Source: a virus
DNA length: 61,150 bases
Reading direction: 5' to 3' (one strand)
IMG/VR virus record: IMGVR_UViG_3300025572_000003
This document shows, piece by piece, positions 1-61,150 of the stretch (its first letter is position 1; every line of letters starts with the position of its first letter). The notes under the pieces were generated by a model, which saw only the letters and a program-made list of their open reading frames with translations, was not told the DNA's origin and made no database searches. Both the position numbers and the translations under genes were made by a program.

Positions 1-127
1 CATGTTTTTGTATGGGGTAATGATCAGGGGCACTAACATGGCAGCAGTCATGGAAAAGGAAGATATTGTCAACATGCTTGAAGAACTGGTTGAAAAGGCT
101 AACCAGCTACTCGGGCTTGTCGAAGAC
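1..127. repeat. Terminal direct repeat, left copy (127 bp, identical to 61024..61150)
   Basis: Bases 1-127 (catgtttttgtatgggg...cttgtcgaagac) recur exactly at 61024-61150. Confidence 0.95.
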
Positions 128-223
128 GGAGTCTATGAAGAGGCTCAACAGCAAGTGACTGAGATCGAACAGAAGCTTAGTGAAGTACATCAGTTTCTCG
201 ATCCCAAGGCCAAGGAGAACTAG
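38..223 (+). CDS. hypothetical small acidic coiled-coil protein (61 aa) between queE and dpdA
   Basis: ATG at 38 follows the queE stop across the circular junction. Part of ORF track 2..223. Confidence 0.5.
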   Translation: MAAVMEKEDIVNMLEELVEKANQLLGLVEDGVYEEAQQQVTEIEQKLSEVHQFLDPKAKEN

Positions 224-224
224 T

Positions 225-1091
225 ATGGCAAGTTTTGCGCCGGTCTGCCCTATCCATATCCTTGAGGCACTCATTGACATCGATCAGGCAGGCAACTACC
301 ACCTACCGCTTGCCCACGACGTGATCCATAACGAAATCCGATATGAACGTGCATTCAAGGTTATCCGTGAACAGTATGGACATTATCGGAGCACAGTTAT
401 CCTTGACAATTCTGTCATTGAACTTGGTTCGGCAGTGAACATTGAGGTAATTGCTGCCGCTGCAAAAACTGTCAAGGCCAATGTAATTGTTCTCCCTGAC
501 GTGCTTCTGGATGCTTCAGCAACAATTACGCAGTGTCGAAAAGCCCTAGATCCATGGTCTAAAAAGCTTGATCATGAATTGGGAGAGGGTAATTACACTT
601 TCATGTATGTTCCGCAAGGGACTACGCCGAATGAGTTTGCAGCTTGTGCCGAAGCACTCGCAGAAGATGAACGGATTGGTTGGTGGGGTATTCCGCGCAA
701 TTACAACATCAAAGGCCTCGGATCAAGGCGGGATGCTGTTGATATTGTACATATGCTAAACCCCAAGCGCAACATCCATCTCCTCGGCTTTTCAGACAAC
801 ATCCTCGATGATATACTTTCCGCACAGCATTCTGCAGTTACAGGAATGGACTCTGCAGTACCTCTTCGCGCAGCATCTCATGGCATGTCAATGTCTTTCG
901 ATATGGACAAAGAACTACCTCCAAGAGGTGACTGGTGGGAAGATCCCAAGACAGTATTTGACGTAGCAATGGTAAAGAACCTTAAATGGATACGGCGTCA
1001 TATCGGCGATCACGGGCGGAAGATCGAACGCCAGTATGTTGGCGGGGGTGTTGACAATGGAGTCCTCTACTACAAGCCAAACCAAGTATAA
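225..1091 (+). CDS. dpdA: DpdA-like DNA transglycosylase (tRNA-guanine transglycosylase superfamily, 7-deazaguanine insertion into DNA)
   Basis: ATG 225 (MASFAPV) is 1 nt after the upstream stop. TGT-fold landmarks IHLLGFS and GMDSAVPLR resemble the TGT HLLG.G and FD..P.R motifs. Sits next to queCDE. Confidence 0.7.
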   Translation: MASFAPVCPIHILEALIDIDQAGNYHLPLAHDVIHNEIRYERAFKVIREQYGHYRSTVILDNSVIELGSAVNIEVIAAAAKTVKANVIVLPDVLLDASATITQCRKALDPWSKKLDHELGEGNYTFMYVPQGTTPNEFAACAEALAEDERIGWWGIPRNYNIKGLGSRRDAVDIVHMLNPKRNIHLLGFSDNILDDILSAQHSAVTGMDSAVPLRAASHGMSMSFDMDKELPPRGDWWEDPKTVFDVAMVKNLKWIRRHIGDHGRKIERQYVGGGVDNGVLYYKPNQV

Positions 1092-1344
1092 GAACGGTAA
1101 CCCGTATTCAGATATTTTGGTTGTGTGCGCTGACAATGATCATATTGTTGCAACGCGGGAGGCACTTAGCAGGCTGTTGTCCGTATACTGTGTAACACCT
1201 GGAATGAGTATTCATGGCAGACGCTACCGGCGGATAATTGTTCTAGACCGGTTCATTGATCGAAACGACGTGAACGTTATTCGCTGGCTACGTGATTTGC
1301 CAAATTACCTGATGAACAAGAACGATGGTATCCATTACATCTGA
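1036..1344 (+). CDS. hypothetical protein (start uncertain: ATG 1036/1057 overlap dpdA; TTG 1117 or GTG 1123 possible)
   Basis: ORF track 1036..1344. No recognisable motif. Confidence 0.35.
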   Translation: MLAGVLTMESSTTSQTKYKNGNPYSDILVVCADNDHIVATREALSRLLSVYCVTPGMSIHGRRYRRIIVLDRFIDRNDVNVIRWLRDLPNYLMNKNDGIHYI

Positions 1345-1379
1345 CGGATACAATCACAACCAATAAAGGGCATATACGC

Positions 1380-3845
1380 ATGATTAATGTCCAACCTCGA
1401 GTCGTTCCACCGCGCGGTCCAGAAGATAGCCCTTTTGTCATTGTTGGTGAAGCTCCGGGGAAGGAAGAAATCAAGAAAGGTATGCCCTTTGTTGGGCCTT
1501 CTGGCCAAGTATTGTCGGAAGCACTTAAGCAGCTTCCCCACCCCGAACCTTACATTCTTAATGTTGTTCCGCATATGATTCAGGGAGAGAAGTCTCCTGA
1601 AATGTTGCAGGAGCTTGTACACAAATACCAAGCACAAGTACTTGAACTGGTGCGAAAGCATCCACGCAAAATAATTCTAGCACTTGGAAATGTTGCACTT
1701 TGGGCGCTGACCAACGATTTCAGTCACAAGATCACAAAGATACGCGGCAAGCTGCTGCAGTCTGATCTTTCCGAACGTGGTATTATTCCTACAACTCATC
1801 CTGCGTTTCTATTGCGCGGCAACGGTTCTTTCAGGCAGTTCAAGATTGACGTTGGCTATGCAATGGATCTTGCTGCTGGAGGTAAAGTTCGTGAGTTTGT
1901 CCCACCCACATGGGAATTACTGGACACAGTAGAGAAGGTCAAATGGTTTGTTGAGCAGGTTAAGCAGCATGAAGGGCTTGTATCAGGCGACTTGGAAACT
2001 GGCGGTTTTTCTCATCGGCTTGACAAAGTCCTAATGGGTGGCTTCACCCTTGACGGCAAGCATGTTTATGTTATTCCAGGTAAGAAACGGGAGTATATTA
2101 AAGCAGGTATTCCTGATCTATTCCCGTATCTGGCCGAGATGTGGGACGTTAGCTCTGAACAAGTACGATTCAACTGGCATAATGGCAAGTTCGATATCAA
2201 GTTCTTCCATCACCAGTATAACCAAGCCGCACGTGTTGACGATGATACCATGCTAATGTCTTATGCATTGGATGAAACATGTGGCGTACATGACTTGGAA
2301 ACAGTTGCTGCTGATTGGCTACACAGTCCAGATTGGAAAGGTATTCTAGACTCGCACAAAAAGAAGAATGAGTCCTACGATGTCATTCCAGAATCTGTAC
2401 TTGTTAAGTATATGGCATACGATATTGCTAACACTCACAACCTGGCATTCATTCTACGGCCGTTGATCGAGGCTGACTCAAAATCCTCCTTATTGTATTA
2501 CAAGACGTTGATCCCGGGAAGCAAGTATCTAGCCGAAATTGAAAAGGCTGGTATGCTTGTTGATCTGGAACGAGTTGAAAGCAATGCAGCCAGGTACGAA
2601 AAGGATGCAAAGGTCTACGAAGAGGAGTTAGAGCGGATTGCACGAGATGCGGGCATGCTTCCAACTACTCAAACCATTACCAAAGGTGGTAAGAAGGTTA
2701 AGGTAGTAGCGGCTGTCAACGTCAATTCACCCCAGCAGCTTAAGGAACTGTTCTTCGACGTACTCCAGATTCCGTCAAAGGAGAAGAGCACTAATGAAAA
2801 AGTGCTGAAGTCACTGCCAGATCATCCTGCAGTGGTTGCACTCCGTAAGTACCGCAAGATCAATAAGGGCCTGACAACTTATGTCCTCCCTGCAACAGAA
2901 CATATTCAGGATGATGGACGAGTTCACCCGACTTATTTGCTTCACGGTACTGCAACTGGTCGTCTTGCATGTAACAACCCAAACTTGCAGAATATTCCGC
3001 GTGAACCGCTTTTGCGTGGGCAATTCATTCCAAAGCCTGGATATTGCTTCGTTGAGGTCGATTTGAACCAGGCTGAGCTTCGATCACTCGCCATTCTGTC
3101 TGGAGATCCAGAACTTTGCCGAATCTATACTGATCCCAATTCAGTTGGACTACATGAAGAAGTACGCGCAGAATTGTACGGGCATCCAAAAGACTGGTCT
3201 GAGCAACAGATTCAAGCCTATATGCAGAAGTGGTACGTAGATACCATCGAGCGAGTAGTCGAAGAGCAGAAGATGCGTGCAAAGAACGTGAATTTCGGCA
3301 TCGTGTATGGAATCACGCCTTTTGGGTTGGCAGAGCAGATTGAGGATACCCCGCAGGAAGCTAGTCGAATGCTCGCAGGTTGGGCTAAAAAGTTCAAGGT
3401 TGCTTGGAACTTCATTCAGCTTTGCAGAAATGCACCACTTAATGGTAAGAATATCGTAACCTGCTTTGGACATAAGAAGCGGTTTGAGATCGTAACCCCA
3501 GAAACGATTATGGCGATCCAAAACGAAGCGGCAAACTTTCCGCACCAAAGCACTGCATCTACGATCACCCTTCATGGCGGTATGCGTATCCAAGACACTC
3601 TGCGGAAGGAATATGATACAAATATCGTCAACACCGTCCACGACTCAATTCTAATGGAGGTACCACTTGTCAAAGATGTAATTGAAGCAGTTGCCAACCT
3701 AGCTATCAATGCGCTAGAACAGGTTCCGCGAGATTGGGGTCTAACTCGAATTCCTTTCAAGGCGGAAGCTAAAGGTGGAATGCGTTGGGGTGAGCTGAAG
3801 AGTTTGAATAAGTTCTATGCAGAAGTCTTTGCTGAGTCTGCATAG
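1380..3845 (+). CDS. polA: DNA polymerase I family (3'-5' exo + pol A) with N-terminal family-4-like uracil-DNA glycosylase domain
   Basis: UDG motifs GEAPGKEE..G.PFVGPSG and HPAFLLR lie in the first ~170 aa. Exo motifs: DLETGG, NGKFD, YMAYDIANT. Pol motifs: DLNQAELRSLA (A), RAKNVNFGIVYG (B), VHDSILMEV (C). Confidence 0.93.
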   Translation: MINVQPRVVPPRGPEDSPFVIVGEAPGKEEIKKGMPFVGPSGQVLSEALKQLPHPEPYILNVVPHMIQGEKSPEMLQELVHKYQAQVLELVRKHPRKIILALGNVALWALTNDFSHKITKIRGKLLQSDLSERGIIPTTHPAFLLRGNGSFRQFKIDVGYAMDLAAGGKVREFVPPTWELLDTVEKVKWFVEQVKQHEGLVSGDLETGGFSHRLDKVLMGGFTLDGKHVYVIPGKKREYIKAGIPDLFPYLAEMWDVSSEQVRFNWHNGKFDIKFFHHQYNQAARVDDDTMLMSYALDETCGVHDLETVAADWLHSPDWKGILDSHKKKNESYDVIPESVLVKYMAYDIANTHNLAFILRPLIEADSKSSLLYYKTLIPGSKYLAEIEKAGMLVDLERVESNAARYEKDAKVYEEELERIARDAGMLPTTQTITKGGKKVKVVAAVNVNSPQQLKELFFDVLQIPSKEKSTNEKVLKSLPDHPAVVALRKYRKINKGLTTYVLPATEHIQDDGRVHPTYLLHGTATGRLACNNPNLQNIPREPLLRGQFIPKPGYCFVEVDLNQAELRSLAILSGDPELCRIYTDPNSVGLHEEVRAELYGHPKDWSEQQIQAYMQKWYVDTIERVVEEQKMRAKNVNFGIVYGITPFGLAEQIEDTPQEASRMLAGWAKKFKVAWNFIQLCRNAPLNGKNIVTCFGHKKRFEIVTPETIMAIQNEAANFPHQSTASTITLHGGMRIQDTLRKEYDTNIVNTVHDSILMEVPLVKDVIEAVANLAINALEQVPRDWGLTRIPFKAEAKGGMRWGELKSLNKFYAEVFAESA

Positions 3846-3868
3846 ACAACCTATCAGAATTTTCGCCC

Positions 3869-3898
3869 TTGCAACCATCAAAGAGTCTCAGCTATAAT
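3869..3898 (+). promoter_or_regulatory. sigma70-like promoter
   Basis: TTGCAA-18 nt-TATAAT between polA and CDS 3925. Confidence 0.55.
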
Positions 3899-3924
3899 TG
3901 ATAGTAAACTGGAAAGAGGGTGCT

Positions 3925-4215
3925 ATGCATATACAAGGCAAAGCAGATTTCACAGCTGTAGGCCGGGAATTAACTCTTGAACAGAAAACCCTAGTATACT
4001 GGAACCTCTCAAGTAGCTTTTACGATCGACTAAATTGTGGGGTAATCACTGTTGCCGATGCGTTCACTGCAATCAACATTTGTACAGATTTCCTTTCCAG
4101 TTCACGTCCTCTGTACAAGCGTTTCATGGAGTTGCGTCACGCAATCATCACTGGCAACCAGGATGTCAATGAAGTAACCTCCAATCAGGTTGTAGAAGAC
4201 GCGCGTGGAGCATAA
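3925..4215 (+). CDS. hypothetical protein
   Basis: ATG 3925 preceded by GGAAAGAGGG. Promoter-like TTGCAA-18-TATAAT lies upstream. Confidence 0.5.
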   Translation: MHIQGKADFTAVGRELTLEQKTLVYWNLSSSFYDRLNCGVITVADAFTAINICTDFLSSSRPLYKRFMELRHAIITGNQDVNEVTSNQVVEDARGA

Positions 4216-4217
4216 CA

Positions 4218-6614
4218 ATGTCTACCAACACCATGGCAAACAATCCTTTTGCAGCTAGGCTTGACCCGCTTCATCTGGCGCAAGACTTCCCGTACAAAGG
4301 CCTCTGCAAAGATATTTGGCGTGACAAGTATGCACAGCCGGGCGAAGAATCCTTCAGTGACACTGCACGCAGAGTGGTTGAAGGTGTTTACGCCAAAGAT
4401 CCGGATGAACAAGCAAAAATCCTCGCATATCATGCGATCAATGCGGGTCTTTGGGTTCCTGCCGGTAGAATCCTTGCAGGAGCTGGAACTGCGAAGCGTG
4501 TTACTCTAATGAACTGCTATGTTACCGGAACCATCGATGATTCGATGGAAGGTATCATGCGCGAACATACCAACTTTGCACTTACTATGCAGCAAGGAGG
4601 CGGAGACGGTGCTGATTTCTCTCCAATCCGTCCTGAAGGGGCTGTACTTAAACGCACGGGAACGAAAGCGTCGGGTCCGCTCCCTTTTATGGACATGTGG
4701 GACGCTATGTGCACTACTATTCGTAGTGCTGGTGATCGTCGGGGCGCTATGATGGCAGTGTTGAGTGACACGCATCCCGACTTGCCTAAATACATTGTTG
4801 CCAAGCAGACACCGGGTCGTTTGACTAATTTCAACATTTCCGTCCTTGTTTCCGACGCCTTTATGGAGGCTGTGAAGGATGATGAGGATTGGGTATTGCA
4901 CTTCCCGGTGATCCCTTGGGAGCGTGAGGATTGGCTCAAGGAATATGATTTTGTCGATGACAATGGTGTGCAGCAATATGCGTACTCCGTCTGGAAAGCT
5001 CGTGAACTGTGGGAATTGATTACCAAGAACACGTATGATTGGTCTGAACCAGGCGTTATCTTTATCGACCGAATCAACGAAGCCAATAATCTCTGGTACT
5101 GTGAAACTATCCGCTGTACGAATCCGTGCGGTGAACAGCCTCTACCGCCTCATGGCTCATGCAATCTCGGTCATGTCAATCTGGCGCGAATGGTTACCAA
5201 TCCGTTCACTGATAATGCGCAGTTTGACTTCAACCTTCTGAAAGAGATTGTTGCTATTGGTACGCGCTTCTTGGATAATGTGATTGATGTCACGAACTAT
5301 CCGCTTGAAGAGCAGCGTCTTGAGCAGTACAACAAACGTCGTATTGGTCTTGGCTTCACGGGTCTTGCAGATGCTATGGCTCAGCTTGGCATCCGCTATG
5401 GATCACTGAAGTCTGCTGATTTTGCCGAGCGCGTAATGAACTGCATTGCAGTCGCTACATATACGGCATCTATCAACCTTGCTAAAGAGCGCGGTGCGTT
5501 TCCGCTCTTTGATCCTGACCGATACCTGGATGAAAATTCGGGATCGTTTGTTAACAGGCAGATGCCTGCAGAGATTCGTGCGCTGATTCGCAAATACGGC
5601 ATCCGCAATGGTGTTCTAAACACGATTGCACCAACAGGCACCACGAGTATTGTATTTGGTAACTGTTCTGGTGGTCTCGAACCTGTCTTTGCACATTTTA
5701 CCCAGCGTAACGTGCGACAGGCAGATGGATCCTGGCTCCCATATCGTGAATACGGTTATGCTGCAAGACTCTTCTATGCACTGTTTGGAGAGACAACTCC
5801 TCTTCCATCGTACATGGTAACTGCAGAGGATCTGACTGTTCATGAGCATATCCTCATCCAGTCTCGAGTCCAGCGGTGGGTGGATGCATCAATTTCCAAA
5901 ACCATCAATATCCCTGAAAACATGCCTTATGACGACTTCGTCAAGGTTTACGAACTGGCATACAATGCAGGTTGCAAGGGATGCACCACTTACAGGCCAA
6001 GCGATGTACGTGGAGCAGTTCTTGTCAAAGCTAGCGATACCGATGCAACGGCAGAAAGCGGAAGCGGAAGCCCTGTTCCGAAAGCGGTGGAACAACTCAG
6101 AGAGCGTCCTGATGTCTTGCACGGATACACGTACAAGGTCAAGTGGCCCAGACGAGATGCTGCCTTCTACCTCACCATCAACGAGGACGATGAAGGAGTA
6201 CCGTTTGAAATCTTCATTACTAGCAAGGATGGATCGCACAGCGAGTGGACTACGGCACTTTCCTTGATGATCACAGCCATCTTCCGAAAAGGCGGTGATG
6301 TCTCGTTCATTCCGCAGGAACTTAAGCAGATTCAGTCTCTGCATGATGGTGCATTCATCGATCAGCAGTATGTTGGATCGCTTCCTGCATACATTGGTCG
6401 AATCCTTGAAAAGCATATGGAACGGAAGAAGGGCAATACCACGTCCCAGTCGGAGCTGAAGATTGCATCTGCCGATGGTGGATTGGCTATTGCTGACGGT
6501 AAGATCGTGATCAAGGATCAAAGAGGTGAGACTTGCCCCTCATGTAAAGCGCCGACACTCTTCCGAGTTGAGGGGTGCAAAAAGTGCAAGTCGTGCGGTT
6601 ACAGTGCATGTTAA
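4218..6614 (+). CDS. nrdJ: ribonucleotide reductase, class II (adenosylcobalamin-dependent)
   Basis: Active-site stretch CTNPCGEQPLPPHGSCNLGHVNL. C-terminal Cys cluster CPSCKAP..CKKCKSCGYSAC. GGAG RBS. Confidence 0.92.
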   Translation: MSTNTMANNPFAARLDPLHLAQDFPYKGLCKDIWRDKYAQPGEESFSDTARRVVEGVYAKDPDEQAKILAYHAINAGLWVPAGRILAGAGTAKRVTLMNCYVTGTIDDSMEGIMREHTNFALTMQQGGGDGADFSPIRPEGAVLKRTGTKASGPLPFMDMWDAMCTTIRSAGDRRGAMMAVLSDTHPDLPKYIVAKQTPGRLTNFNISVLVSDAFMEAVKDDEDWVLHFPVIPWEREDWLKEYDFVDDNGVQQYAYSVWKARELWELITKNTYDWSEPGVIFIDRINEANNLWYCETIRCTNPCGEQPLPPHGSCNLGHVNLARMVTNPFTDNAQFDFNLLKEIVAIGTRFLDNVIDVTNYPLEEQRLEQYNKRRIGLGFTGLADAMAQLGIRYGSLKSADFAERVMNCIAVATYTASINLAKERGAFPLFDPDRYLDENSGSFVNRQMPAEIRALIRKYGIRNGVLNTIAPTGTTSIVFGNCSGGLEPVFAHFTQRNVRQADGSWLPYREYGYAARLFYALFGETTPLPSYMVTAEDLTVHEHILIQSRVQRWVDASISKTINIPENMPYDDFVKVYELAYNAGCKGCTTYRPSDVRGAVLVKASDTDATAESGSGSPVPKAVEQLRERPDVLHGYTYKVKWPRRDAAFYLTINEDDEGVPFEIFITSKDGSHSEWTTALSLMITAIFRKGGDVSFIPQELKQIQSLHDGAFIDQQYVGSLPAYIGRILEKHMERKKGNTTSQSELKIASADGGLAIADGKIVIKDQRGETCPSCKAPTLFRVEGCKKCKSCGYSAC

Positions 6615-6626
6615 TAGGAGGACATA

Positions 6627-7196
6627 ATGAACAAGTCTGCCGAAACGTTTGACGAGCTGCAGCGTAACATGGAAGAGGCTTTCAAAGAGCTGACCAATAA
6701 TGTTCGACTGACTGAGCGTCCAACGCTTCCAGTCAGGGAACCCGCAGAGCGAGATATGCTGGGTCGTAAGAAGGTTATCGGCCTACGCAATGCAGACTCT
6801 GATGTGGGAGTTAATCCGAAGGATCGGATTGGTGCTGCCAAGATCGATTTCTCACTGATCCCAACGGCTGGCAAGATTGCTGAAGCCAAAGCACTGATGG
6901 ATGGTGGATCGAAGTATGGCCCATACAACTGGCGTGTGGAACCTGTTCGGGCACGTACATACATTAGCGCAATCGAACGTCACCTGGAAGACTATAAGGA
7001 AGGTCATGAGATTGCATCAGATTCCTTGATTGAGCATCTTGGCCATATCAAGGCATGCTGCTCCATCCTGATTGACGCCGCTGTTCAGGGTATGCTGATT
7101 GATGATCGTCCGATTAACCGCATTCAGGAGCGGTCACTCATTGATGAGGCCAACCAGTGGATCAAGCAGAACAAGCCGGAAGGATGGGGTCGATGA
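6627..7196 (+). CDS. MazG-like all-alpha NTP pyrophosphohydrolase-type protein (DUF5664 / dATP-dGTP diphosphohydrolase-like domain)
   Basis: Pattern KIDFSLIP..A.A...G..KYGPYNWR...Y..A..RHL......D..IEHLGH matches my recollection of this phage domain family. Perfect AGGAGG RBS. Confidence 0.45.
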   Translation: MNKSAETFDELQRNMEEAFKELTNNVRLTERPTLPVREPAERDMLGRKKVIGLRNADSDVGVNPKDRIGAAKIDFSLIPTAGKIAEAKALMDGGSKYGPYNWRVEPVRARTYISAIERHLEDYKEGHEIASDSLIEHLGHIKACCSILIDAAVQGMLIDDRPINRIQERSLIDEANQWIKQNKPEGWGR

Positions 7197-8286: not shown

Positions 8287-8964
8287 ATGGCTACCGATCC
8301 TGAACTTGGTGAAAAGATCCATAAACACCTTGTTGCCCTGGGGCTTGAAACGCCGATGGAGAAGAATCCAGAAGCACCCCTATTGGTCGACGGGGTACCC
8401 TTGAATAAGTTCGACAGTATTAAGCATTGCCACCACTTGACAATGCGTTCATTGGGTTTGGATCTTAATGACGACTCGTTGCGGGACACACCTAAGCGGA
8501 TCGCGAAGATGTACTGCAATGAGATCTTCACCGGACTCGATTACGCAAACTTCCCCAAGGCGACCACTGTTGAGAACAAGATGCAGTACAATGAAATGGT
8601 CTGCGTCAGTGGTATCACAGTACAGTCTATGTGTGAGCACCATTTCCTCCCGTTTGTTGGGACCGCATCTGTAGCGTATATTCCCGACAAGCTTGTACTC
8701 GGACTCAGCAAGTTCAATCGGGTGGTTGAATTCTTCTCTCGTAGGCCGCAGATTCAGGAAAGACTTACCGAACAGATCTCGGCAGCATTGCGGCTTATTC
8801 TCCAGACCGAAGATGTTGCAGTAGTCATCAATGCAGATCACTATTGCGTCAAGCTCCGCGGTATTCGTGATGGATGCTCAAACACCGTAACTTCTCGTTT
8901 GGCAGGTAAATTCCGCACTGTACCTGAACTGCGTGCAGAATTTCTGGCTTTGAGCCGTACGTGA
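8287..8964 (+). CDS. folE: GTP cyclohydrolase I
   Basis: CEHHFLPF zinc/active-site motif, typical length. First step of the preQ0 pathway. Confidence 0.9.
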   Translation: MATDPELGEKIHKHLVALGLETPMEKNPEAPLLVDGVPLNKFDSIKHCHHLTMRSLGLDLNDDSLRDTPKRIAKMYCNEIFTGLDYANFPKATTVENKMQYNEMVCVSGITVQSMCEHHFLPFVGTASVAYIPDKLVLGLSKFNRVVEFFSRRPQIQERLTEQISAALRLILQTEDVAVVINADHYCVKLRGIRDGCSNTVTSRLAGKFRTVPELRAEFLALSRT

Positions 8965-14097: not shown

Positions 14098-14520
14098 TTA
14101 CTCCATGATGAAGATGACGTACTTGAAGGTTGCGTCCCCACTATCGTATGGGCTAACGTACGTGAAGTACACAGTCCTGCTCCCCGGTGCCCCGCCCCAG
14201 ACAGCCTTGAATCGCACGTTTGAAAATACGATTTGGCTAGTGTCGCGCTGAAAATAACTGAACGGGACCAGTGTATTAGGTCCCGCTGCCGCGCACCACC
14301 ACATCGCGGGAACACCCGTGATGAAGGACGGCAACGCGATTACCTGATTGATGGAGACATAGCCGGACATCACCACCGACGCGACCTCCCCCCACTCGGT
14401 AGAGAAAGACAGGTCCGTGATGCTGCTTGGATCGGCTGTGAACACATCGATGCCAGGCAGAGAGACGAAAAGCCCAATCGGCCCAGCCGGATGCTGCCCG
14501 AGAATAACCCTACGAGTCAC
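14098..14520 (-). CDS. hypothetical protein (140 aa), paralog of 13671..14093
   Basis: ORF track. N-terminal RVILG..GLFVSLPGIDVFTA. Confidence 0.45.
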   Translation of the reverse strand: MTRRVILGQHPAGPIGLFVSLPGIDVFTADPSSITDLSFSTEWGEVASVVMSGYVSINQVIALPSFITGVPAMWWCAAAGPNTLVPFSYFQRDTSQIVFSNVRFKAVWGGAPGSRTVYFTYVSPYDSGDATFKYVIFIME

Positions 14521-17500
14521 TGATCACGATCCTCGCGTTGTCTAGCTCAATGCGCAGACGGTTATTACTGCTGCGCACAACACCGGCTGTGAGATCACCG
14601 ACGTTGCCTGAGATGGCCGACAGTTGCGACACCGCCAGCGCCGGTGCAGCGATGGTGCCATCCGCAATCAGGTCGCCCTTGATGGACACCTTGGCCTGCC
14701 CGCCACGAGTGAGGATTGAGAAGAAGTACTCCGCCGGCACACTGGGGTCCGTCGATGGCGGGCCGATCAGGAACTTGTCCGTCCTGACGCGGAACTCGTT
14801 GACCAAGTTACCAGTCGAGCCAGTGCCAGTGATGCTCTCGAAGCCAGCCAGGTAGCCATTGGCATCGATCGATACCTTGTAGCTGCCGACGATACTGCCC
14901 TTCCAATCGGACAGCGCGCCAAGGGTCGCAGACACCGTGACGTTGTTGTTGTCGTAGTCGGCGACAATCTCCGAGCCCAGAACAGCAAGAGCCTTGTTAG
15001 CGGCCGCCTCAACATTGGAAATCTGACTGGCCTGTGCTGTGACAGTCGCAGTGACATTGTTCAAGCCATTCTCCAGGCCTGCGATGTCGTCTGACATTTC
15101 GTCCAGATCATCGCTGACCGTTACGCCATTGGCTTCATACTTGGCGACGATTTCCGAGCCCAGCGTGGCGAGTGCTTTTTCGGCGTCTGCCTCAACACTG
15201 GCAATCTGGGTCGCCTGCGCCGAGACGGTGCCCCTGATCTGAGTCAGGTTGTCAGAAACGGTCCTGTCGGTCAGATCGTACTCGGCCGTGATCTGCGATC
15301 CCAGCACCGCCTTGGCATAGTCAGCCGTCGCCTGTACAGTCGCTATCTGACGGATGGCGGCCCGTGCCGCGCCTTCGGCCGCGTCGGCAATCACATGCCC
15401 CTCGGCGGCGAGATCAGCAATCTCCTGGAGCTGCGGTGCCTGCAGGATGAAGTCGCGCAGTTCGCTCTTCAGGTCATCCTCGTCAAGCCGGATCGTGAGG
15501 AAGTCACCACGCAACTCAACATCAATACCTTCAACATCCACCACGCTCCACGGCCCCTCAAGATTGCTGACCGTGATCGGGCGTACACGCAGCTTGAGAT
15601 CAACCGGTGCGACGATCACTTGCAGGGATGGCGTCGAGCCGCGATAGACCTCGTCCCAGCTCTCACCGCCATCGTAGGACACCTGCGCCACGTAGAGTGC
15701 GGCCCCGTTTGGCGGCATCCACCCAGCCCGCAGCATGGCATTCGTCCCCTGCTGTGCCATCATCGCCGCGATCTGCGTGATCACCGGCACGGACGGCTCA
15801 AGGAACGGCGGCACAGGCGCAGGAGGCGGCACACCATCCTCGGTGATGTCGTAGACCTCCGGCGCATCGATAACCGTCTCGATGTCCATGTACCGGCCAT
15901 CCGGCGAGGACGTGCCACGCGTGACCAGCCCGTGATAGGTCCGCGGCTCGCCTGCAGAAAACACGAACGAGCACGCCTCCTCCGTAGGCTGGCGCGCGAT
16001 GGCCACCGCAGCAGTGATGCCCTGATCTGCCTCCACTGCAGCGAGGTCCAAAGCCTCGAAAATGGCGATGTCGTCTGCACCGCCACGCAGTACACGCACA
16101 GGCCCGAAGGGGCTCCCGTTGCGCCGACGCACCTCGAGGTAATGATTGCCAGTCGGCTGCCACTCCACCGGCCGCGACAACTTGACCTGCCGCGTCGCTG
16201 CGTTGTAGGCCTCAACATAGCCGCTCTGCCCCCACGTCTGAGGCAGGTCAGACGAGATGGCGACGAGATCGCCACGCTTGAGCAGACGCCCCTCCATCTC
16301 TACACGGCACGACACGGTCCGGCGACGGTAGCGGCTGACGGCGGCCAGATGCCGCGCTACACCAACGGCCTGCGCACGCTTCGTCAAGCCCGGCACTTGA
16401 ACACGCGCAGGCATGGAGAGCATCTGCCCAGCCGGTGCCGAGGAGACATCAGCCAGTCGCCACGTGGTCTCGTCCAGATACTCGACGACGACACCATCGG
16501 CCCACTCCTCGTCCTGCAGGTTACGAACGATGGAGAGTGAGCCGCGCACCATCTCCCGGTCGGTGATGAGCATCGTCGGCAGGCCACGTGGCTCGTCGCG
16601 CACCATGGTTAGCCGGTCGCCAATGAAGGCAGGGTTGGCACGGCCGACGCGCAGTGCGGTCTCAATGGCCTCCTGGATCGAAGTCGGCTCGGTGAACACG
16701 TGGTCGAACGTGTGCCCGAGGCTGTCGTAGAGAGCCGCGTAGCTGGCAAATGTCTGCAGGTCCACGTTCGCCAGCGGCAGGCCAGCCGAGTAGATAGGGT
16801 TCGACCAGATATCGAGCGCAGCCCAGACAGGATTGCGCGTCGGCTGCTCCACCCACGTCGAGCCGTTCCAGGCCGCTACCATGCGCGTGGCGATCACACC
16901 GATCTTGCGGCTTGAGAGTCCGGACAGCGTGGCGTCGGCCTGCATGCGCAGAGCAATGGTCGTCACATGCGGGAACGTCTGCGGCCCGTCGATGTGGGCC
17001 CTCAGAGCCGACCAGACGACCTGGTTGGCGCCACGCACCTTGCCACCATAAAGCGACTGCCCGTCGATCTCGGCATCGGTCCGACGCGCGCGCACCTCAA
17101 ACCGCCCGGGCGATACATTCACTCGCTCGGTGACGCGGATTTGTGACTGCTTGGTGAACTGGTAGCCCTTCGACAGGATGGTGAACCAGCCGCCCACCGG
17201 CTCACCGGCGTCAGTGACGTACCGTGCCTGCACCTCAATCCCTGTGTGCGCCCACAGAACCCTATCTTTGTAGGTCGTGTAGGAGCCGCCCGGCCACACG
17301 AAGTCGAGCAGGATCGTCTTGGCCTGCGTGCCGGCCGCATTGACGATAAAGCCACCGATCCACGTGGACGGGTCCGGCAGTCGCTGGCCACCCACCTCAC
17401 TCGCCGTCACGACATTGACGGGGAAGAGATCGACCTGCTCACCTGGCTCATTGATCTCAACTGCGACCGAGCCTGCAAAAGAGGGCAGCACGCCATCGGT

Positions 17501-18187
17501 CTTGTTCCAGATCGGCGTGTCGTCGATGCGGATCTCCTCCACGTCGTACCGCCCGCAGCCAAGCGCCAGCAGCTCATAAAGATACTGGTTGTCGCCCGCG
17601 AATTCGCTGTACGGCGGCGCGGCGAAGTCGGGATAGACCAGACGGCGGCCATACCCGACAGGGATCGGCTGCAGCGGGCGCGCAGTATTGCCGTCAGCAG
17701 AGATGGAAAACAGGTCCTCGCTCTTCTCGCTCTGCCCGCCAGCCTTCGGGCGCATGAAGGCAGAGAGCAGCAACCCACCACCAGCGAGAATGAGCGCGCC
17801 GATGATGCTTGCGGCCGCTGATTTGGCACCACCGAGGCCGAGAGCGCCAGCAATGACGCCGCCAGCCCACGGCGCAAGGGCCGTCAGGGCGACCATGGCG
17901 ACCACCGCAGCGATGGACTTACGCGACGAGGCACCCGTGGCGCCTCCACCACCGAGAGGGCGGGACAGGAAAACCACCTCATCCCGCTTGCGCAGCTTAC
18001 GATGCGGCCACTCCCGAACCGGCACGGGCTGACCGTTGATGAGGCAAATGGTCGGCAGACCGGCAAAGGTCCAGCCCTGCCGGCGCACAAAGCTCGCAAT
18101 TGTCTCCCGATGACGGCGCTCGGCGGCATCGACCACAAGCAGCGGTGTACCGGCGGGGTCAGCGAGTTGGTGCAGGACAAGCGGCAT
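14510..18187 (-). CDS. host-specificity protein: lambda gpJ-like central tail fibre with gpI-like N-terminal domain fused
   Basis: The N-terminal ~150 aa resemble gpI, including a Gly-rich hydrophobic stretch (GGGGATGASS..IAAVVAMVAL..). This is followed by a gpJ-type N-terminus NTARPLQPIPVGYGRRLVYPD. 1225 aa. C-terminal coiled repeats. Confidence 0.7.
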   Translation of the reverse strand: MPLVLHQLADPAGTPLLVVDAAERRHRETIASFVRRQGWTFAGLPTICLINGQPVPVREWPHRKLRKRDEVVFLSRPLGGGGATGASSRKSIAAVVAMVALTALAPWAGGVIAGALGLGGAKSAAASIIGALILAGGGLLLSAFMRPKAGGQSEKSEDLFSISADGNTARPLQPIPVGYGRRLVYPDFAAPPYSEFAGDNQYLYELLALGCGRYDVEEIRIDDTPIWNKTDGVLPSFAGSVAVEINEPGEQVDLFPVNVVTASEVGGQRLPDPSTWIGGFIVNAAGTQAKTILLDFVWPGGSYTTYKDRVLWAHTGIEVQARYVTDAGEPVGGWFTILSKGYQFTKQSQIRVTERVNVSPGRFEVRARRTDAEIDGQSLYGGKVRGANQVVWSALRAHIDGPQTFPHVTTIALRMQADATLSGLSSRKIGVIATRMVAAWNGSTWVEQPTRNPVWAALDIWSNPIYSAGLPLANVDLQTFASYAALYDSLGHTFDHVFTEPTSIQEAIETALRVGRANPAFIGDRLTMVRDEPRGLPTMLITDREMVRGSLSIVRNLQDEEWADGVVVEYLDETTWRLADVSSAPAGQMLSMPARVQVPGLTKRAQAVGVARHLAAVSRYRRRTVSCRVEMEGRLLKRGDLVAISSDLPQTWGQSGYVEAYNAATRQVKLSRPVEWQPTGNHYLEVRRRNGSPFGPVRVLRGGADDIAIFEALDLAAVEADQGITAAVAIARQPTEEACSFVFSAGEPRTYHGLVTRGTSSPDGRYMDIETVIDAPEVYDITEDGVPPPAPVPPFLEPSVPVITQIAAMMAQQGTNAMLRAGWMPPNGAALYVAQVSYDGGESWDEVYRGSTPSLQVIVAPVDLKLRVRPITVSNLEGPWSVVDVEGIDVELRGDFLTIRLDEDDLKSELRDFILQAPQLQEIADLAAEGHVIADAAEGAARAAIRQIATVQATADYAKAVLGSQITAEYDLTDRTVSDNLTQIRGTVSAQATQIASVEADAEKALATLGSEIVAKYEANGVTVSDDLDEMSDDIAGLENGLNNVTATVTAQASQISNVEAAANKALAVLGSEIVADYDNNNVTVSATLGALSDWKGSIVGSYKVSIDANGYLAGFESITGTGSTGNLVNEFRVRTDKFLIGPPSTDPSVPAEYFFSILTRGGQAKVSIKGDLIADGTIAAPALAVSQLSAISGNVGDLTAGVVRSSNNRLRIELDNARIVISDS

Positions 18188-47787: not shown

Positions 47788-48285
47788 ATGTCCAAATTTA
47801 GTGTATTCCGCAAGGCATGTAACCAGGCAAAGAACATTAAGCCATTCAGTGGAACACTCCTTGCATTAGATCCTGGTGAGACGACTGGTTGGGCAAGTTT
47901 TAGTGCAACTAATGAAGTGAGCGCACTTGTAGACCAAGGACAGATCAAGACTTGGCCTCAACAGGATATGGTTGAACAACTGACCAAGCTCTACGACCAT
48001 GTCAAACCTGATTTAGTGGTGCATGAATTATATACAGTATATGACTGGAAAACTGATGATCATGCATGGTCGCAGATTCCGACAGTACACGTTATTGGAT
48101 GCATAGAAACACTGTGCATTCAACGTAGTATCCCGTTCATTTCACAGACAGCACAAGTTGCAAAGAACTTTTGCACTGACAACAAGTTAAAGTCGTGGAA
48201 CTATTATATCGAAGGACGACGGCATGCCCGGGATGCAATTCGACACGGGTGTTACTTTCTATTGTTCGGAATGGTCAGCAAATAA
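47788..48285 (+). CDS. ruvC: RuvC-like Holliday junction resolvase
   Basis: N-terminal LLALDPGETTGWA catalytic Asp motif. ~165 aa. Confidence 0.7.
   Translation: MSKFSVFRKACNQAKNIKPFSGTLLALDPGETTGWASFSATNEVSALVDQGQIKTWPQQDMVEQLTKLYDHVKPDLVVHELYTVYDWKTDDHAWSQIPTVHVIGCIETLCIQRSIPFISQTAQVAKNFCTDNKLKSWNYYIEGRRHARDAIRHGCYFLLFGMVSK
48247..48270 (+). repeat. 24-bp direct repeat, copy 1 (inside the ruvC 3' end)
   Basis: gggtgttactttctattgttcgga, identical to 48648-48671. Confidence 0.95.
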
Positions 48286-48611: not shown

Positions 48612-48649
48612 TGATGTTCAAGCAAAGCCTGGGAAGCATAAGCTCAAGG
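48612..48649 (+). pseudogene. remnant of the 5' end of an HNH-like endonuclease gene
   Basis: tgatgttcaagcaaagcctgggaagcataagctcaagg matches 49557-49595 (the start of CDS 49559) with 4 differences including a 1-nt indel. Confidence 0.6.
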
Positions 48650-48671
48650 GTGTTACTTTCTATTGTTCGGA
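48648..48671 (+). repeat. 24-bp direct repeat, copy 2
   Basis: Identical to 48247-48270. Read in the ruvC frame it continues GCYFLLFGQLNTRL-stop. Confidence 0.95.
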
Positions 48672-58923: not shown

Positions 58924-59652
58924 ATGCAGCGAAAAGCATTTGTTCTCCTGTCAGGTGGTATGGATTCTACCACGTGTCTGTACAAAGCATACAAGGACTT
59001 TGACGGCTCTGTTGAAGCTATCAGCATCAACTACGGCCAGCGTCACAAGCGTGAGCTGACTTTTGCCAAGCAGTCGTGTGATCGTCTCGGTATTAACCAC
59101 ACCATTCTCGATGTCGGCGATCTGCTGTCGGGCAAGGAAGTTCTCCTGTCTGCTGCGTCGATCGGCGAGATGGAGATGGTCCACAAGGACTACTCCGAGA
59201 TCAAGGGTGTTTCTCCTTCCTACGTCCCGTTCCGTAACGGCCTTCTTCTGTCAGCAATCACGGCTTATGCACAGAAGTACGTCAATAGTCAGGTCGGCTA
59301 CGACAACGAGCGTCTGGGCTACGCCAAGGATCTCGTGACCATTTATTATGGTGCGCATGCAGAAGACGCTGCTAATTGGGCGTATCCAGATTGCACGCCG
59401 GAATTCAATGGATCGATGGCAAATGCAATCTACACTGGATCCTACAACACCATTCGGCTGGCAACTCCGCTGCAGTGGCTTGAGAAGTGGCAGATTGTGC
59501 AGCTTGGCGAATCTCTTGGGGTTGATTGGCGCTTGACCTGGAGCTGCTACGACAACGGTGATATCCACTGCGGTAAGTGCCCCACATGCCTTGCACGAAA
59601 AGCTGCATTCAAGCGCGCAGGTGTTGTTGATCCAACCGAATACGCCGAGTGA
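58924..59652 (+). CDS. queC: 7-cyano-7-deazaguanine (preQ0) synthase
   Basis: PP-loop LLSGGMDSTT. C-terminal zinc motif CGKCPTCLARK. Confidence 0.9.
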   Translation: MQRKAFVLLSGGMDSTTCLYKAYKDFDGSVEAISINYGQRHKRELTFAKQSCDRLGINHTILDVGDLLSGKEVLLSAASIGEMEMVHKDYSEIKGVSPSYVPFRNGLLLSAITAYAQKYVNSQVGYDNERLGYAKDLVTIYYGAHAEDAANWAYPDCTPEFNGSMANAIYTGSYNTIRLATPLQWLEKWQIVQLGESLGVDWRLTWSCYDNGDIHCGKCPTCLARKAAFKRAGVVDPTEYAE

Positions 59653-60230
59653 CCAGAATGTCTGATCCTACTCTGATTTATCAGAGCACGAAGACCTACA
59701 CGCACAGTGTAGGTCTTTCTGCTTGTTTCCGCCAGTGGCGTGCCGAATCGCATTGCCGTTTCCTGCATGGATATTCGCTTGAAGTCCACTTTGTCTTCGA
59801 AGCTGTGGAATTAGACGTTCGAAACTGGGTAGTGGACTTTGGCTCACTCAAGAGCCTCAAGGGTTGGCTAGAGGATACCTTCGATCACAAGACACTAGTT
59901 GCAGAGGATGATCCGCTTCTTGAGCACTTCCAGAATATGCACAAGCTGGGAATGCTTGATCTAAGGGTTGTTCCTGCATGCGGTTGTGAAAAATTTGCCG
60001 AAATGATCTACCATTATACAGACACTTGGCTTCGAGATAATGGATATTCACCACGGTGTATTCTGCGAAGTGTGGAAGTCAAGGAACACCAAGGTAACAG
60101 CGCACGTGTAATTTGTGTAGATGCGCTTCCGCAGCGGTTAGCCACTAACATACAGTCAGACGGGCATATGGCAATTGGCGATCTCTTTAGCTATTCGCAG
60201 AACAAGGGAGATACTGATGGTCAACCCTGA
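59649..60230 (+). CDS. queD: 6-carboxy-5,6,7,8-tetrahydropterin synthase
   Basis: PTPS-like CRFLHGYS and DHK..V motifs. Start GTG 59649 or ATG 59658. Confidence 0.8.
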   Translation: MTRMSDPTLIYQSTKTYTHSVGLSACFRQWRAESHCRFLHGYSLEVHFVFEAVELDVRNWVVDFGSLKSLKGWLEDTFDHKTLVAEDDPLLEHFQNMHKLGMLDLRVVPACGCEKFAEMIYHYTDTWLRDNGYSPRCILRSVEVKEHQGNSARVICVDALPQRLATNIQSDGHMAIGDLFSYSQNKGDTDGQP

Positions 60231-61059
60231 AGATCAGGTTAACAAAAAGATACCACTCGTAGAAATGTTTGGACCAACTATACAGGGTGAAGGGTCTGTA
60301 ATTGGTCAGCAGACATATTTTCTACGGTTCGGACTTTGTGACTACAAGTGCAAGATGTGTGATTCCATGCATGCAGTCTTGCCCTCAGAAGTCAAGCGAA
60401 ATGCAACCTGGCTAACTCAGCAGGAAATCTACAACAATTTTCTTGAGTTCCATGTACCAGACAGCACTAATTGGGTCACTTTTTCCGGCGGTAATCCTGC
60501 AGTCCATGAACTGGGTCATCTCCTTGGACTTCTACGACTACAGGGTTTCAAGGTAAATGTCGAGACGCAGGGTACCTTGTGGAAGGGATGGCTTGGGAAG
60601 GTAGATTCTCTGACGATCAGTCCCAAAGGTCCTGGCATGGGTGAAAAGCATGATCAAAGTGCATTCGAGCGTTTCTGTGACGCATTGTATGCTAGCATGC
60701 GTAATGGGCTCAGACACACCCCGGATTTGTGTGTCAAGATCGTTGTGTTTGATCAGCGGGATCTGGACTTTGCAGCAGAAATCTTCTCCTACCTGAAGAA
60801 GCATCCTTTGCTGGCTTGGCAAGATCCTTCCAGATTCTTCTACCTGTCGCTTGGTAATCCTATTCCACCACCTGCTGATGGTTCGCAAGCGTTCGACCCA
60901 GAAACACGTGAGCCGTTAACAAGCTGGAAACACCATCAAATCCTCTTGCAGCGGTATCGAACGTTGTACGAGGACATTCAGAAGCATCCGATTCTGTCGC
61001 AGACGCGATTCCTTCCCCAGTGGCATGTTTTTGTATGGGGTAATGATCAGGGGCACTAA
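60217..61059 (+). CDS. queE: 7-carboxy-7-deazaguanine synthase (radical SAM)
   Basis: FGPTIQGEG and Cys triad CDYKCKMC. GGGAG RBS before ATG 60217. Confidence 0.85.
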   Translation: MVNPEDQVNKKIPLVEMFGPTIQGEGSVIGQQTYFLRFGLCDYKCKMCDSMHAVLPSEVKRNATWLTQQEIYNNFLEFHVPDSTNWVTFSGGNPAVHELGHLLGLLRLQGFKVNVETQGTLWKGWLGKVDSLTISPKGPGMGEKHDQSAFERFCDALYASMRNGLRHTPDLCVKIVVFDQRDLDFAAEIFSYLKKHPLLAWQDPSRFFYLSLGNPIPPPADGSQAFDPETREPLTSWKHHQILLQRYRTLYEDIQKHPILSQTRFLPQWHVFVWGNDQGH

Positions 61060-61150
61060 CATGGCAGCAGTCATGGAAAAGGAAGATATTGTCAACATGC
61101 TTGAAGAACTGGTTGAAAAGGCTAACCAGCTACTCGGGCTTGTCGAAGAC
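61024..61150. repeat. Terminal direct repeat, right copy
   Basis: Identical to 1-127. Contains the queE 3' end and the start of the 61-aa ORF (ATG 61061 = ATG 38). Confidence 0.95.

Follow-up and report, generated by a model that had tools for sequence, protein, structure and literature searches.

The virus record IMGVR_UViG_3300025572_000003, a stretch of 61,150 nt (hereinafter designated the window), carries close to its first letter a gene, ORF2, whose product is probably a DpdA3-type member of the tRNA-guanine transglycosylase (TGT) superfamily belonging to a phage-encoded 7-deazaguanine DNA-modification module. An original prediction made from the letters alone had described ORF2 as a DpdA-like DNA transglycosylase flanked by two small open reading frames (ORFs), hereinafter designated ORF1 and ORF3. 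The DpdA-like reading is upheld by the fold of ORF2 and by profile homology to the DpdA3 protein of Cellulophaga phage phiST; curated sequence models, on the other side, do not recognise ORF2.

An AlphaFold2 (AF2) model of ORF2 computed from the homologue alignment (pLDDT 90.4, pTM 0.87) adopts a beta/alpha barrel, with residues 1-261 forming a TGT-like TIM barrel. When the model is compared with the PDB by Foldseek, the top 50 matches are all TGT or ArcTGT (E from 9.5e-8, TM ~0.6). Among predicted viral structures (BFVD), the best named match, at rank 2, is the 259-aa phiST protein M4SLA5 (E 3.8e-12, TM 0.66/0.72). M4SLA5 is gp042 of phiST (KC821604), a genome in which the genes run QueE, FolE, MazG, gp040, ATPase, gp042, gp043 and PolIII; since this order fits the description of CGPG_00068 to CGPG_00064 by Cui et al. 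2023, we equate gp042 with CGPG_00065, the founding DpdA3 (PMC10516641). By hhalign, the ORF2 family profile aligns with gp042 across 186 columns at 92.8% probability (E 4e-7), phmmer with phiST DpdA3 as the query directly matches 17 members of the ORF2 family (E 2e-15 to 1e-3), and tblastn with either ORF2 or phiST DpdA3 reaches the same Bacillus phage genes (BSP7_057 and those of BSTP phages). ORF2 thus displays homology to the phiST protein, a TGT-like barrel with the Asp residues, and a location between deazaguanine genes and a polymerase. We assign the family on the basis of the fold and the profile homology to phiST DpdA3: ORF2 is a very divergent member of the DpdA3 branch with some affinity to DpdA4/DUF6610, and is neither a canonical TGT nor a bacterial DpdA.

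Two TGT-like landmarks had been pointed out in ORF2, IHLLGFS (residues 184-190, nt 774-794) and GMDSAVPLR (residues 207-215, nt 843-869), and both prove to be more than chance resemblances, as H185, G188 and D209 are invariant, together with D61, N62, D92 and R168, in an alignment of 116 sequences that includes phiST DpdA3. The residues common to ORF2 and the phiST protein are D61, N62, D92, Q131, G132, R168, H185, G188, D209 and S210. In a weak alignment with E. coli Tgt, LPD92 falls on FD143EC and GMD209SAVPLR falls on MFD264CVMPTR; in Tgt, D143 binds the substrate and D264 is the nucleophile. If ORF2 works as TGT does, its nucleophile would be Asp209, forming a covalent Asp209-DNA intermediate, while Asp61 and Asp92 would hold the base and activate it.

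The gene model of ORF2 is supported by its relatives. We place the start at ATG 225 and not at the in-frame GTG 180 because the N-terminus MAxFAPVCP is kept in 40 homologues. The conserved core stops at about residue 260 and is followed by no C-terminal tRNA-binding part; the remaining ~27-residue tail (residues 262-288, nt 1008-1091) is predicted to be disordered, is missing in most homologues and overlaps the start of ORF3, whose insertion may have extended the dpdA reading frame. The zinc-binding CxCxxC...H motif of the TGT subdomain is absent from the ORF2 sequence. Metagenomes yield 267 homologues of ORF2, typically of ~255 aa and nearly all unnamed. The isoelectric point (pI) of ORF2 (5.93) is close to that of E. 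coli Tgt (5.97), and pI is therefore no discriminator of DNA binding.

The proposed function fits with the neighbouring biosynthetic genes. The identities of QueC, QueD and QueE are backed by Pfam, PHROG and NCBIfam, and folE, although not named in the original prediction, is also present in the window; FolE is the first step of the preQ0 pathway. Together, FolE, QueD, QueE and QueC would turn GTP into preQ0, and ORF2, as a stand-alone TIM barrel with neither a zinc nor a tRNA-binding subdomain, would swap guanine in the phage DNA for this base; the modified DNA would then escape restriction enzymes. A Pfam scan of 36 plus-strand ORFs of the window, the que genes and polA among them, returned ribonucleotide reductase (RNR), a MazZ-like dATP/dGTP diphosphohydrolase, ThyX, FolE, a ligase, helicases and recombination proteins, and among these 36 ORFs it found no QueF, ArcS, amidotransferase, formyltransferase or methyltransferase. 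The same scan detects no fused amidotransferase (GATase) domain in the 242 aa of QueC. Searches by phmmer with HVTV-1 QueF and phiST DpdL, single seeds of limited sensitivity, gave no match in the window or in any related locus. The claim that the phage carries no amidotransferase, ArcS-like or QueF gene accordingly stands for the 36 plus-strand ORFs scanned with Pfam and for the seed searches of all ORFs. Since no QueF, DpdL or amidotransferase is found, preQ0 is the simplest predicted base, and dPreQ0 is the simplest and most likely product, with dADG as an alternative. As originally proposed, dPreQ0 is a fair first prediction, tempered by the facts that insertion of preQ0 has never been shown for DpdA3 and that the known DpdA3 phages carry other bases, namely dDG, dADG or fdPreQ1, at 100% replacement (PMC10516641). 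By analogy with these phages, guanine replacement in the window phage may be near complete or complete.

A circumstantial observation on DNA modification comes from Brevundimonas viromes, in which all 17 winter 'ssDNA virome' contigs recovered after dsDNase treatment mapped to the phages MaInes and StAshley (PMC10070969). These are the two double-stranded DNA phage isolates that carry the queCDE-dpdA module, and their GC content is 50%, compared with 59-66% for the other Brevundimonas phages listed (PMC10070969). Survival of the dsDNase treatment may reflect nuclease-resistant, modified DNA in this clade.

Several results weigh against the assignment of ORF2 and its predicted activity. The profile searches that had been proposed as a check, against PF01702 and the DpdA models, were run and gave no sequence-level match: neither ORF2 nor any of 40 relatives matches PF01702 (TGT) at E up to 0.1, and ORF2 scores 12 bits against the NCBIfam DpdA model NF041059, whose cut-off is 200. 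No significant match to ORF2 was found in PHROG, PADLOC or PDB sequences, whether with the single sequence or with a 40-sequence profile. The match to DUF6610 (PF20314) stays at E 0.071 and 13.2 bits, under the gathering threshold of 27. Identity between ORF2 and phiST DpdA3 is only ~19%, and the E. coli Tgt alignment, taken by itself, falls short of significance (E 0.034). No DpdA3 enzyme is so far known to be active in vitro or in E. coli, the substrate of the subfamily is not established, and preQ0 was judged an unlikely DpdA3 substrate in the phages studied (PMC10516641); the sequence of the window QueC, for its part, does not tell whether the enzyme stops at 7-amido-7-deazaguanine (ADG). 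One outcome named beforehand as contradicting a DpdA-like enzyme was that the protein would turn out to be a canonical tRNA TGT or a TIM-barrel enzyme of unrelated kind; ORF2 scored as neither.

Compared with the characterised systems, ORF2 most resembles phiST DpdA3, which is likewise a stand-alone TGT-like TIM barrel of ~260 aa, devoid of the zinc subdomain and encoded between deazapurine genes and a replicative polymerase. The two settings differ in that the window clade combines a complete FolE-QueD-QueE-QueC set with a DNA polymerase A fused to a uracil-DNA glycosylase domain (UDG-PolA), whereas phiST has no QueC and instead carries DpdL, an AAA_18 ATPase, MazG and PolIII alpha. DUF6610 is touched by 16 of the 40 ORF2 relatives, weakly (E up to 0.1, best 9.2e-6), but not by phiST DpdA3.

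DUF6610 is the only Pfam family that the window clade touches, and it is the family of DpdA4, of which HVTV1_69 scores 190.8 bits. DpdA4 also shares with the clade the gene order queC-queD-queE-folE-dpdA and alignable VPQG/VPHG and HLLG motifs. We considered DpdA4 as the closest family and rejected it, because phiST DpdA3 scored far better by hhalign than HVTV1_69 did (E 0.071 in one comparison; 36% probability and E 3.7e-4 with 116 sequences). HVTV1_69 further differs from ORF2 in its length (386 aa), its acidic N-terminal extension, its occurrence in archaeal viruses and its association with QueF, leading to dPreQ1; ORF2 lies under the Pfam threshold, and its cultured relatives infect bacteria, whereas DpdA4 was restricted to archaeal viruses in its 2023 description. 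A related-locus search with HVTV1_69 retrieved only three near-identical haloviruses. In Halovirus HVTV-1 (L079, 8804-13300), QueC, QueD, QueE, FolE and DpdA4 follow one another in the same order as in the bacteriophage clade, which suggests a common ancestral DpdA3/DpdA4 module. HVTV-1 DpdA4 also matches positions 460-1134 of Mycobacterium phage Knocker (H18, MZ150786.2; E 6e-9), where a ParB-like nuclease domain is annotated, and the Foldseek search likewise lists a phage protein annotated ParB/Sulfiredoxin; some phage DUF6610/DpdA-like barrels may thus be fused to ParB-like domains. Our literature search on later DpdA subfamilies (DpdA5/DpdA6) and on DUF6610 found nothing past Cui et al. 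2023.

The other branches of the superfamily are more distant. Phage DpdA1/DpdA2 enzymes (CAjan, 9g, iggy; Vibrio phages nt-1 and VH7D) are anti-restriction DNA transglycosylases accompanied, as here, by a phage-encoded preQ0 pathway, and CAjan, which has the same FolE/QueD/QueE/QueC set as the window, carries dPreQ0. These enzymes are recognised as queuine tRNA-ribosyltransferases, whereas ORF2 is not, and the fold match of ORF2 to such proteins (E ~2e-4) falls well behind that to phiST DpdA3. Tgt and ArcTGT (PF01702) share the TIM barrel with ORF2, FDCVxPTR of Tgt corresponding to MDSAVPLR of ORF2, but ORF2 lacks their zinc site and tRNA-binding domains and is ~100 residues shorter. Bacterial DpdA (NF041059) belongs to the same superfamily and catalyses the same guanine-to-preQ0 exchange in DNA that is proposed for ORF2; unlike ORF2, it works with a DpdB ATPase partner in a host defence system, and it modifies <0.1% of guanines (PMC10516641). 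No DpdB-like neighbour was detected here, ORF1 and ORF3 giving no Dpd match in PADLOC and the rest of the window being scanned against Pfam only. The missing DpdB had been taken as a reason to expect a partner among the small ORFs, an argument of little force, given that the DpdA2 enzymes of phages function unaided in E. coli; DpdA3 is inactive there (PMC10516641), so a further cofactor for DpdA3 is possible.

The gene arrangement recurs in related loci. We examined 79 loci, comprising 76 from IMG/VR, two cultured phages and the window, and counted neighbours within 6 kb of the dpdA-like gene: QueE is present in 64, QueC in 60, FolE in 57 and QueD in 44 of the 79, and PolA lies downstream in 64. 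The order queC-queD-queE-(folE)-dpdA-polA is fixed and nearly universal, and most absences fall at contig ends. In Brevundimonas phage StAshley (L001) the module reads QueC, QueD, QueE, a 60-aa ORF, the dpdA-like gene and PolA, and in Bacillus phage BSP7 it reads QueC, QueD, QueE, FolE, intervening genes, BSP7_057 and PolI; in both phages the dpdA-like gene is annotated as hypothetical or is misannotated. The cultured relatives infect Brevundimonas, Bacillus and Weizmannia. A UDG-PolA fusion lies directly downstream of dpdA in the window and in all close relatives examined (L084-L089). The MazZ-like gene sits between the RNR gene and thyX, near folE, and the presence of an enzyme that degrades dGTP is suggestive in a phage that would replace guanine; judged from gene context, the enzyme may be linked to DNA modification. 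MazG stands beside the deazapurine genes in phiST, and MazG homologues also occur in L064, L066 and L075.

ORF1, the small gene immediately upstream of dpdA, encodes a very acidic protein (pI 4.2, 15 D+E against 5 K+R). Its family comprises proteins of 55-85 aa, all with pI 4.05-4.6, and its core is predicted to comprise a helix, a Y/F-D/E-EA turn and a second helix, near-gapless over ~55 residues in a 16-sequence alignment. We find the family at 18 distinct loci, where DpdA shares 36-63% identity with ORF2; its gene invariably adjoins dpdA on the upstream side, and the family hidden Markov model (HMM) matches this slot and nothing else in the loci; a profile search of 5.8 billion proteins retrieved only 12 members. 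No Pfam or PHROG family matches ORF1 at threshold or consistently. In five loci (L009, L013, L017, L023 and L029) dpdA is abutted directly by FolE or QueE, in StAshley the slot holds an unrelated, basic 60-aa protein, in L015, L016, L028, L030 and L033 it holds other unrelated small ORFs, and neither phiST nor Chryseobacterium phage MA9V-3 has an ORF1 homologue. We compared strains, namely three contigs identical to the window and two strains 97-98% identical, and found too few changes in ORF1 to be informative: one comparison gave 5 synonymous changes and 1 non-synonymous, a second gave 4 and 7. ORF1 is accordingly a genuine gene, confined to its clade and bound to its position, and is not an obligatory partner of the enzyme family, because many dpdA family members lack it; its earlier nomination as a partner candidate is borne out in so far as it is co-conserved in part of the clade. 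A DNA mimic directed against host defence, or else an accessory factor, would match the acidity and size of ORF1.

Other small genes are found beside dpdA as well. A conserved small protein (WLPKSQ...PEWLA..KELI) is encoded upstream of dpdA at L028:1945-2133, L030:5816-5998 and L033:5807-5995 and downstream of it at L010:6777-6995, and, because its side differs by locus, we regard the flanks of dpdA as a variable slot for small genes. In phiST, gp043 (L083:3377-3580), directly downstream of DpdA3, is a very acidic 67-aa ORF with no homology to ORF1.

ORF3 is present as originally called except for its start, which gene callers place at 1057, behind the likelier ribosome-binding site, and not at 1036; so defined, it overlaps the end of ORF2 by 35 nt. 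Although proposed as a possible partner of dpdA, it is not co-conserved with it. Two exhaustive searches (1.8-5.8 billion proteins) yield only its own cluster, and five close relatives have in its place either nothing or an unrelated 56-aa ORF. A positional analogue exists only in L003/L084, where the Smith-Waterman score is marginal (40 of 2000 shuffles reach it) and BLASTP against the L003 analogue gives no match. The single-sequence AF2 model has a pLDDT of 48. The one weak, nearly full-length match is to the PADLOC candidate defence protein PDC-M06A (E 5e-4, 18.4 bits). ORF3 is thus an orphan for which no connection with the module can be demonstrated.

A DpdA3-type DNA transglycosylase could insert a base other than preQ0, and it is possible, if less probable than preQ0 insertion, that this base is ADG, made by a QueC halting at the amide, or 7-carboxy-7-deazaguanine (CDG). 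None of the known DpdA3 phages, with their dADG, dDG or fdPreQ1, carries dPreQ0, use of preQ0 is doubted, and an amide-stopping QueC has been proposed for the Campylobacter phage QueC* (PMC10516641); the window QueC barely passes TIGR00364 (154.9 bits, cut-off 150.3), far under the E. coli-type model. The same QueC nevertheless matches PF06508 over its full length, and with no DpdL, DpdN, QueF or amidotransferase found in the window or related loci, preQ0 is the default end product. That ORF2 might instead be a tRNA-guanine transglycosylase modifying host tRNA and not DNA is very improbable. The best PDB fold matches are indeed all tRNA enzymes, but ORF2 has no PF01702 match, CxCxxC zinc motif or C-terminal tRNA-binding part, it is most closely related to DpdA3, which is associated with DNA, no tRNA genes occur in the phage, and the gene is linked to replication genes.

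The inactivity of DpdA3 on its own bears on two further explanations. It could be explained if ORF1 were a dedicated accessory subunit or regulator of DpdA, which we consider unlikely: the ORF1 family does occur only directly upstream of one dpdA clade, in 18 loci, with start and stop codons 1-2 nt apart, and DpdA3 is inactive alone (PMC10516641), yet many family members at 30-43% identity have no ORF1, phiST and MA9V-3 have no homologue, and the ratio of 4 synonymous to 7 non-synonymous changes is more in line with a rapidly evolving anti-defence or moron gene than with a core subunit. Exchange at the nucleotide level, in which ORF2 would act before replication on a free deoxynucleotide (e.g. 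dGMP from the MazZ-like enzyme) and UDG-PolA would then incorporate the modified dNTP, is improbable, although it would account both for complete guanine replacement and for the failure of DpdA3 on plasmids in E. coli, which it leaves unmodified. It agrees with the 100% replacement in DpdA3 phages and the ADG nucleoside found in infected Campylobacter cells (PMC10516641), and with the adjacency of dpdA and PolA in 64 loci, the MazZ-like enzyme in the window and MazG in phiST. All characterised members of the TGT/DpdA superfamily, however, have a polynucleotide as their substrate, Cui et al. make the case that every such modification is post-replicative, and no nucleotide kinase or phosphoribosyltransferase was identified among the window ORFs scanned. 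We retain DpdA3-type exchange of guanine in phage DNA as the preferred reading.

The window assembly closes into a circle of 61,023 bp, as its two ends form an exact direct repeat of 127 nt (100% identity, spacing 61023 nt; Table 1). Sixteen public contigs contain the same phage sequence. It follows from the end overlap that queC-queD-queE continue across the junction into ORF1, ORF2, ORF3 and the UDG-PolA fusion, which confirms the originally proposed succession of the que genes and the dpdA region; the queE stop at 61059 equals window position 36, and ORF1 begins one base further on. The three ORFs lie where they had been called, ORF3 with its shifted start. Gene callers begin queD at 59658 (190 aa) and queE at 60217 (280 aa). 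Because queC through polA are tightly packed on one strand and no plus-strand terminator-like site occurs in positions 1-4300, they are probably transcribed as a single unit linked to replication; the promoter and terminator scans gave counts no better than chance.

Table 1 Coordinates of the dpdA module and associated features in the window.
Feature	Position	Strand	Basis
queC, 7-cyano-7-deazaguanine synthase	58924..59652	+	242 aa; PF06508 E 1e-53 over full length; TIGR00364
queD, 6-carboxytetrahydropterin synthase	59649..60230	+	PF01242 E 2.7e-16; phrog_2389 E 7.5e-43
queE, radical-SAM 7-carboxy-7-deazaguanine synthase	60175..61059	+	TIGR03365 E 1.9e-58; phrog_2076 E 1.2e-34
Terminal overlap of circular assembly	1..127	strandless	identical to 61024-61150
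ORF1, 61-aa very acidic predicted helical-hairpin protein	38..223	+	family alignment, profile searches
ORF2, probable DpdA3-type 7-deazaguanine transglycosylase homologue	225..1091	+	288 aa; AF2 fold, hhalign, Foldseek
ORF3, orphan ORF	1057..1344	+	95 aa; 102 aa if begun at 1036
DNA polymerase A with N-terminal UDG-superfamily domain	1380..3845	+	PF00476 E 3.9e-64; PF03167 E 8.6e-19
MazZ-like dATP/dGTP diphosphohydrolase	6627..7196	+	PF18909 E 3.4e-22
folE, GTP cyclohydrolase I	8287..8964	+	PF01227 E 5.6e-62

Other than the dpdA module, a few features of the phage genome deserve mention. Searches of the phage detected no tRNA genes and no Rfam families, the preQ1 riboswitch included. Two copies of a 45-nt element (48226-48270 and 48627-48671), 80% identical and sharing GGGTGTTACTTTCTATTGTTCGGA, are separated by ~400 nt within the early or replication region and may constitute a regulatory repeat. 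The segment 10001-20000 has a GC content of 0.57-0.61, compared with 0.47-0.50 elsewhere, and contains large minus-strand genes, e.g. 14510-18187 (1225 aa).

Phage DpdA enzymes that modify DNA with 7-deazaguanines have been described before, and DpdA3 has been a defined subfamily since 2023; what is new here is a very divergent DpdA3 member from a large and essentially unannotated metagenomic clade (267 proteins), a branch that standard annotation with Pfam, PHROG and NCBIfam misses entirely. DpdA3 is the least understood DpdA subfamily, tied to complete guanine replacement and never reconstituted, and it is noteworthy in this respect that a DpdA3-type enzyme is here combined with a complete preQ0 pathway, a consistently adjacent UDG-PolA and the clade-specific acidic ORF1. 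Cultured members of the clade exist (Brevundimonas phages StAshley and MaInes; Bacillus phages BSP7 and BSTP), which makes DpdA3 function testable, and phages that carry queCDE but seemingly no DpdA may in fact have one.

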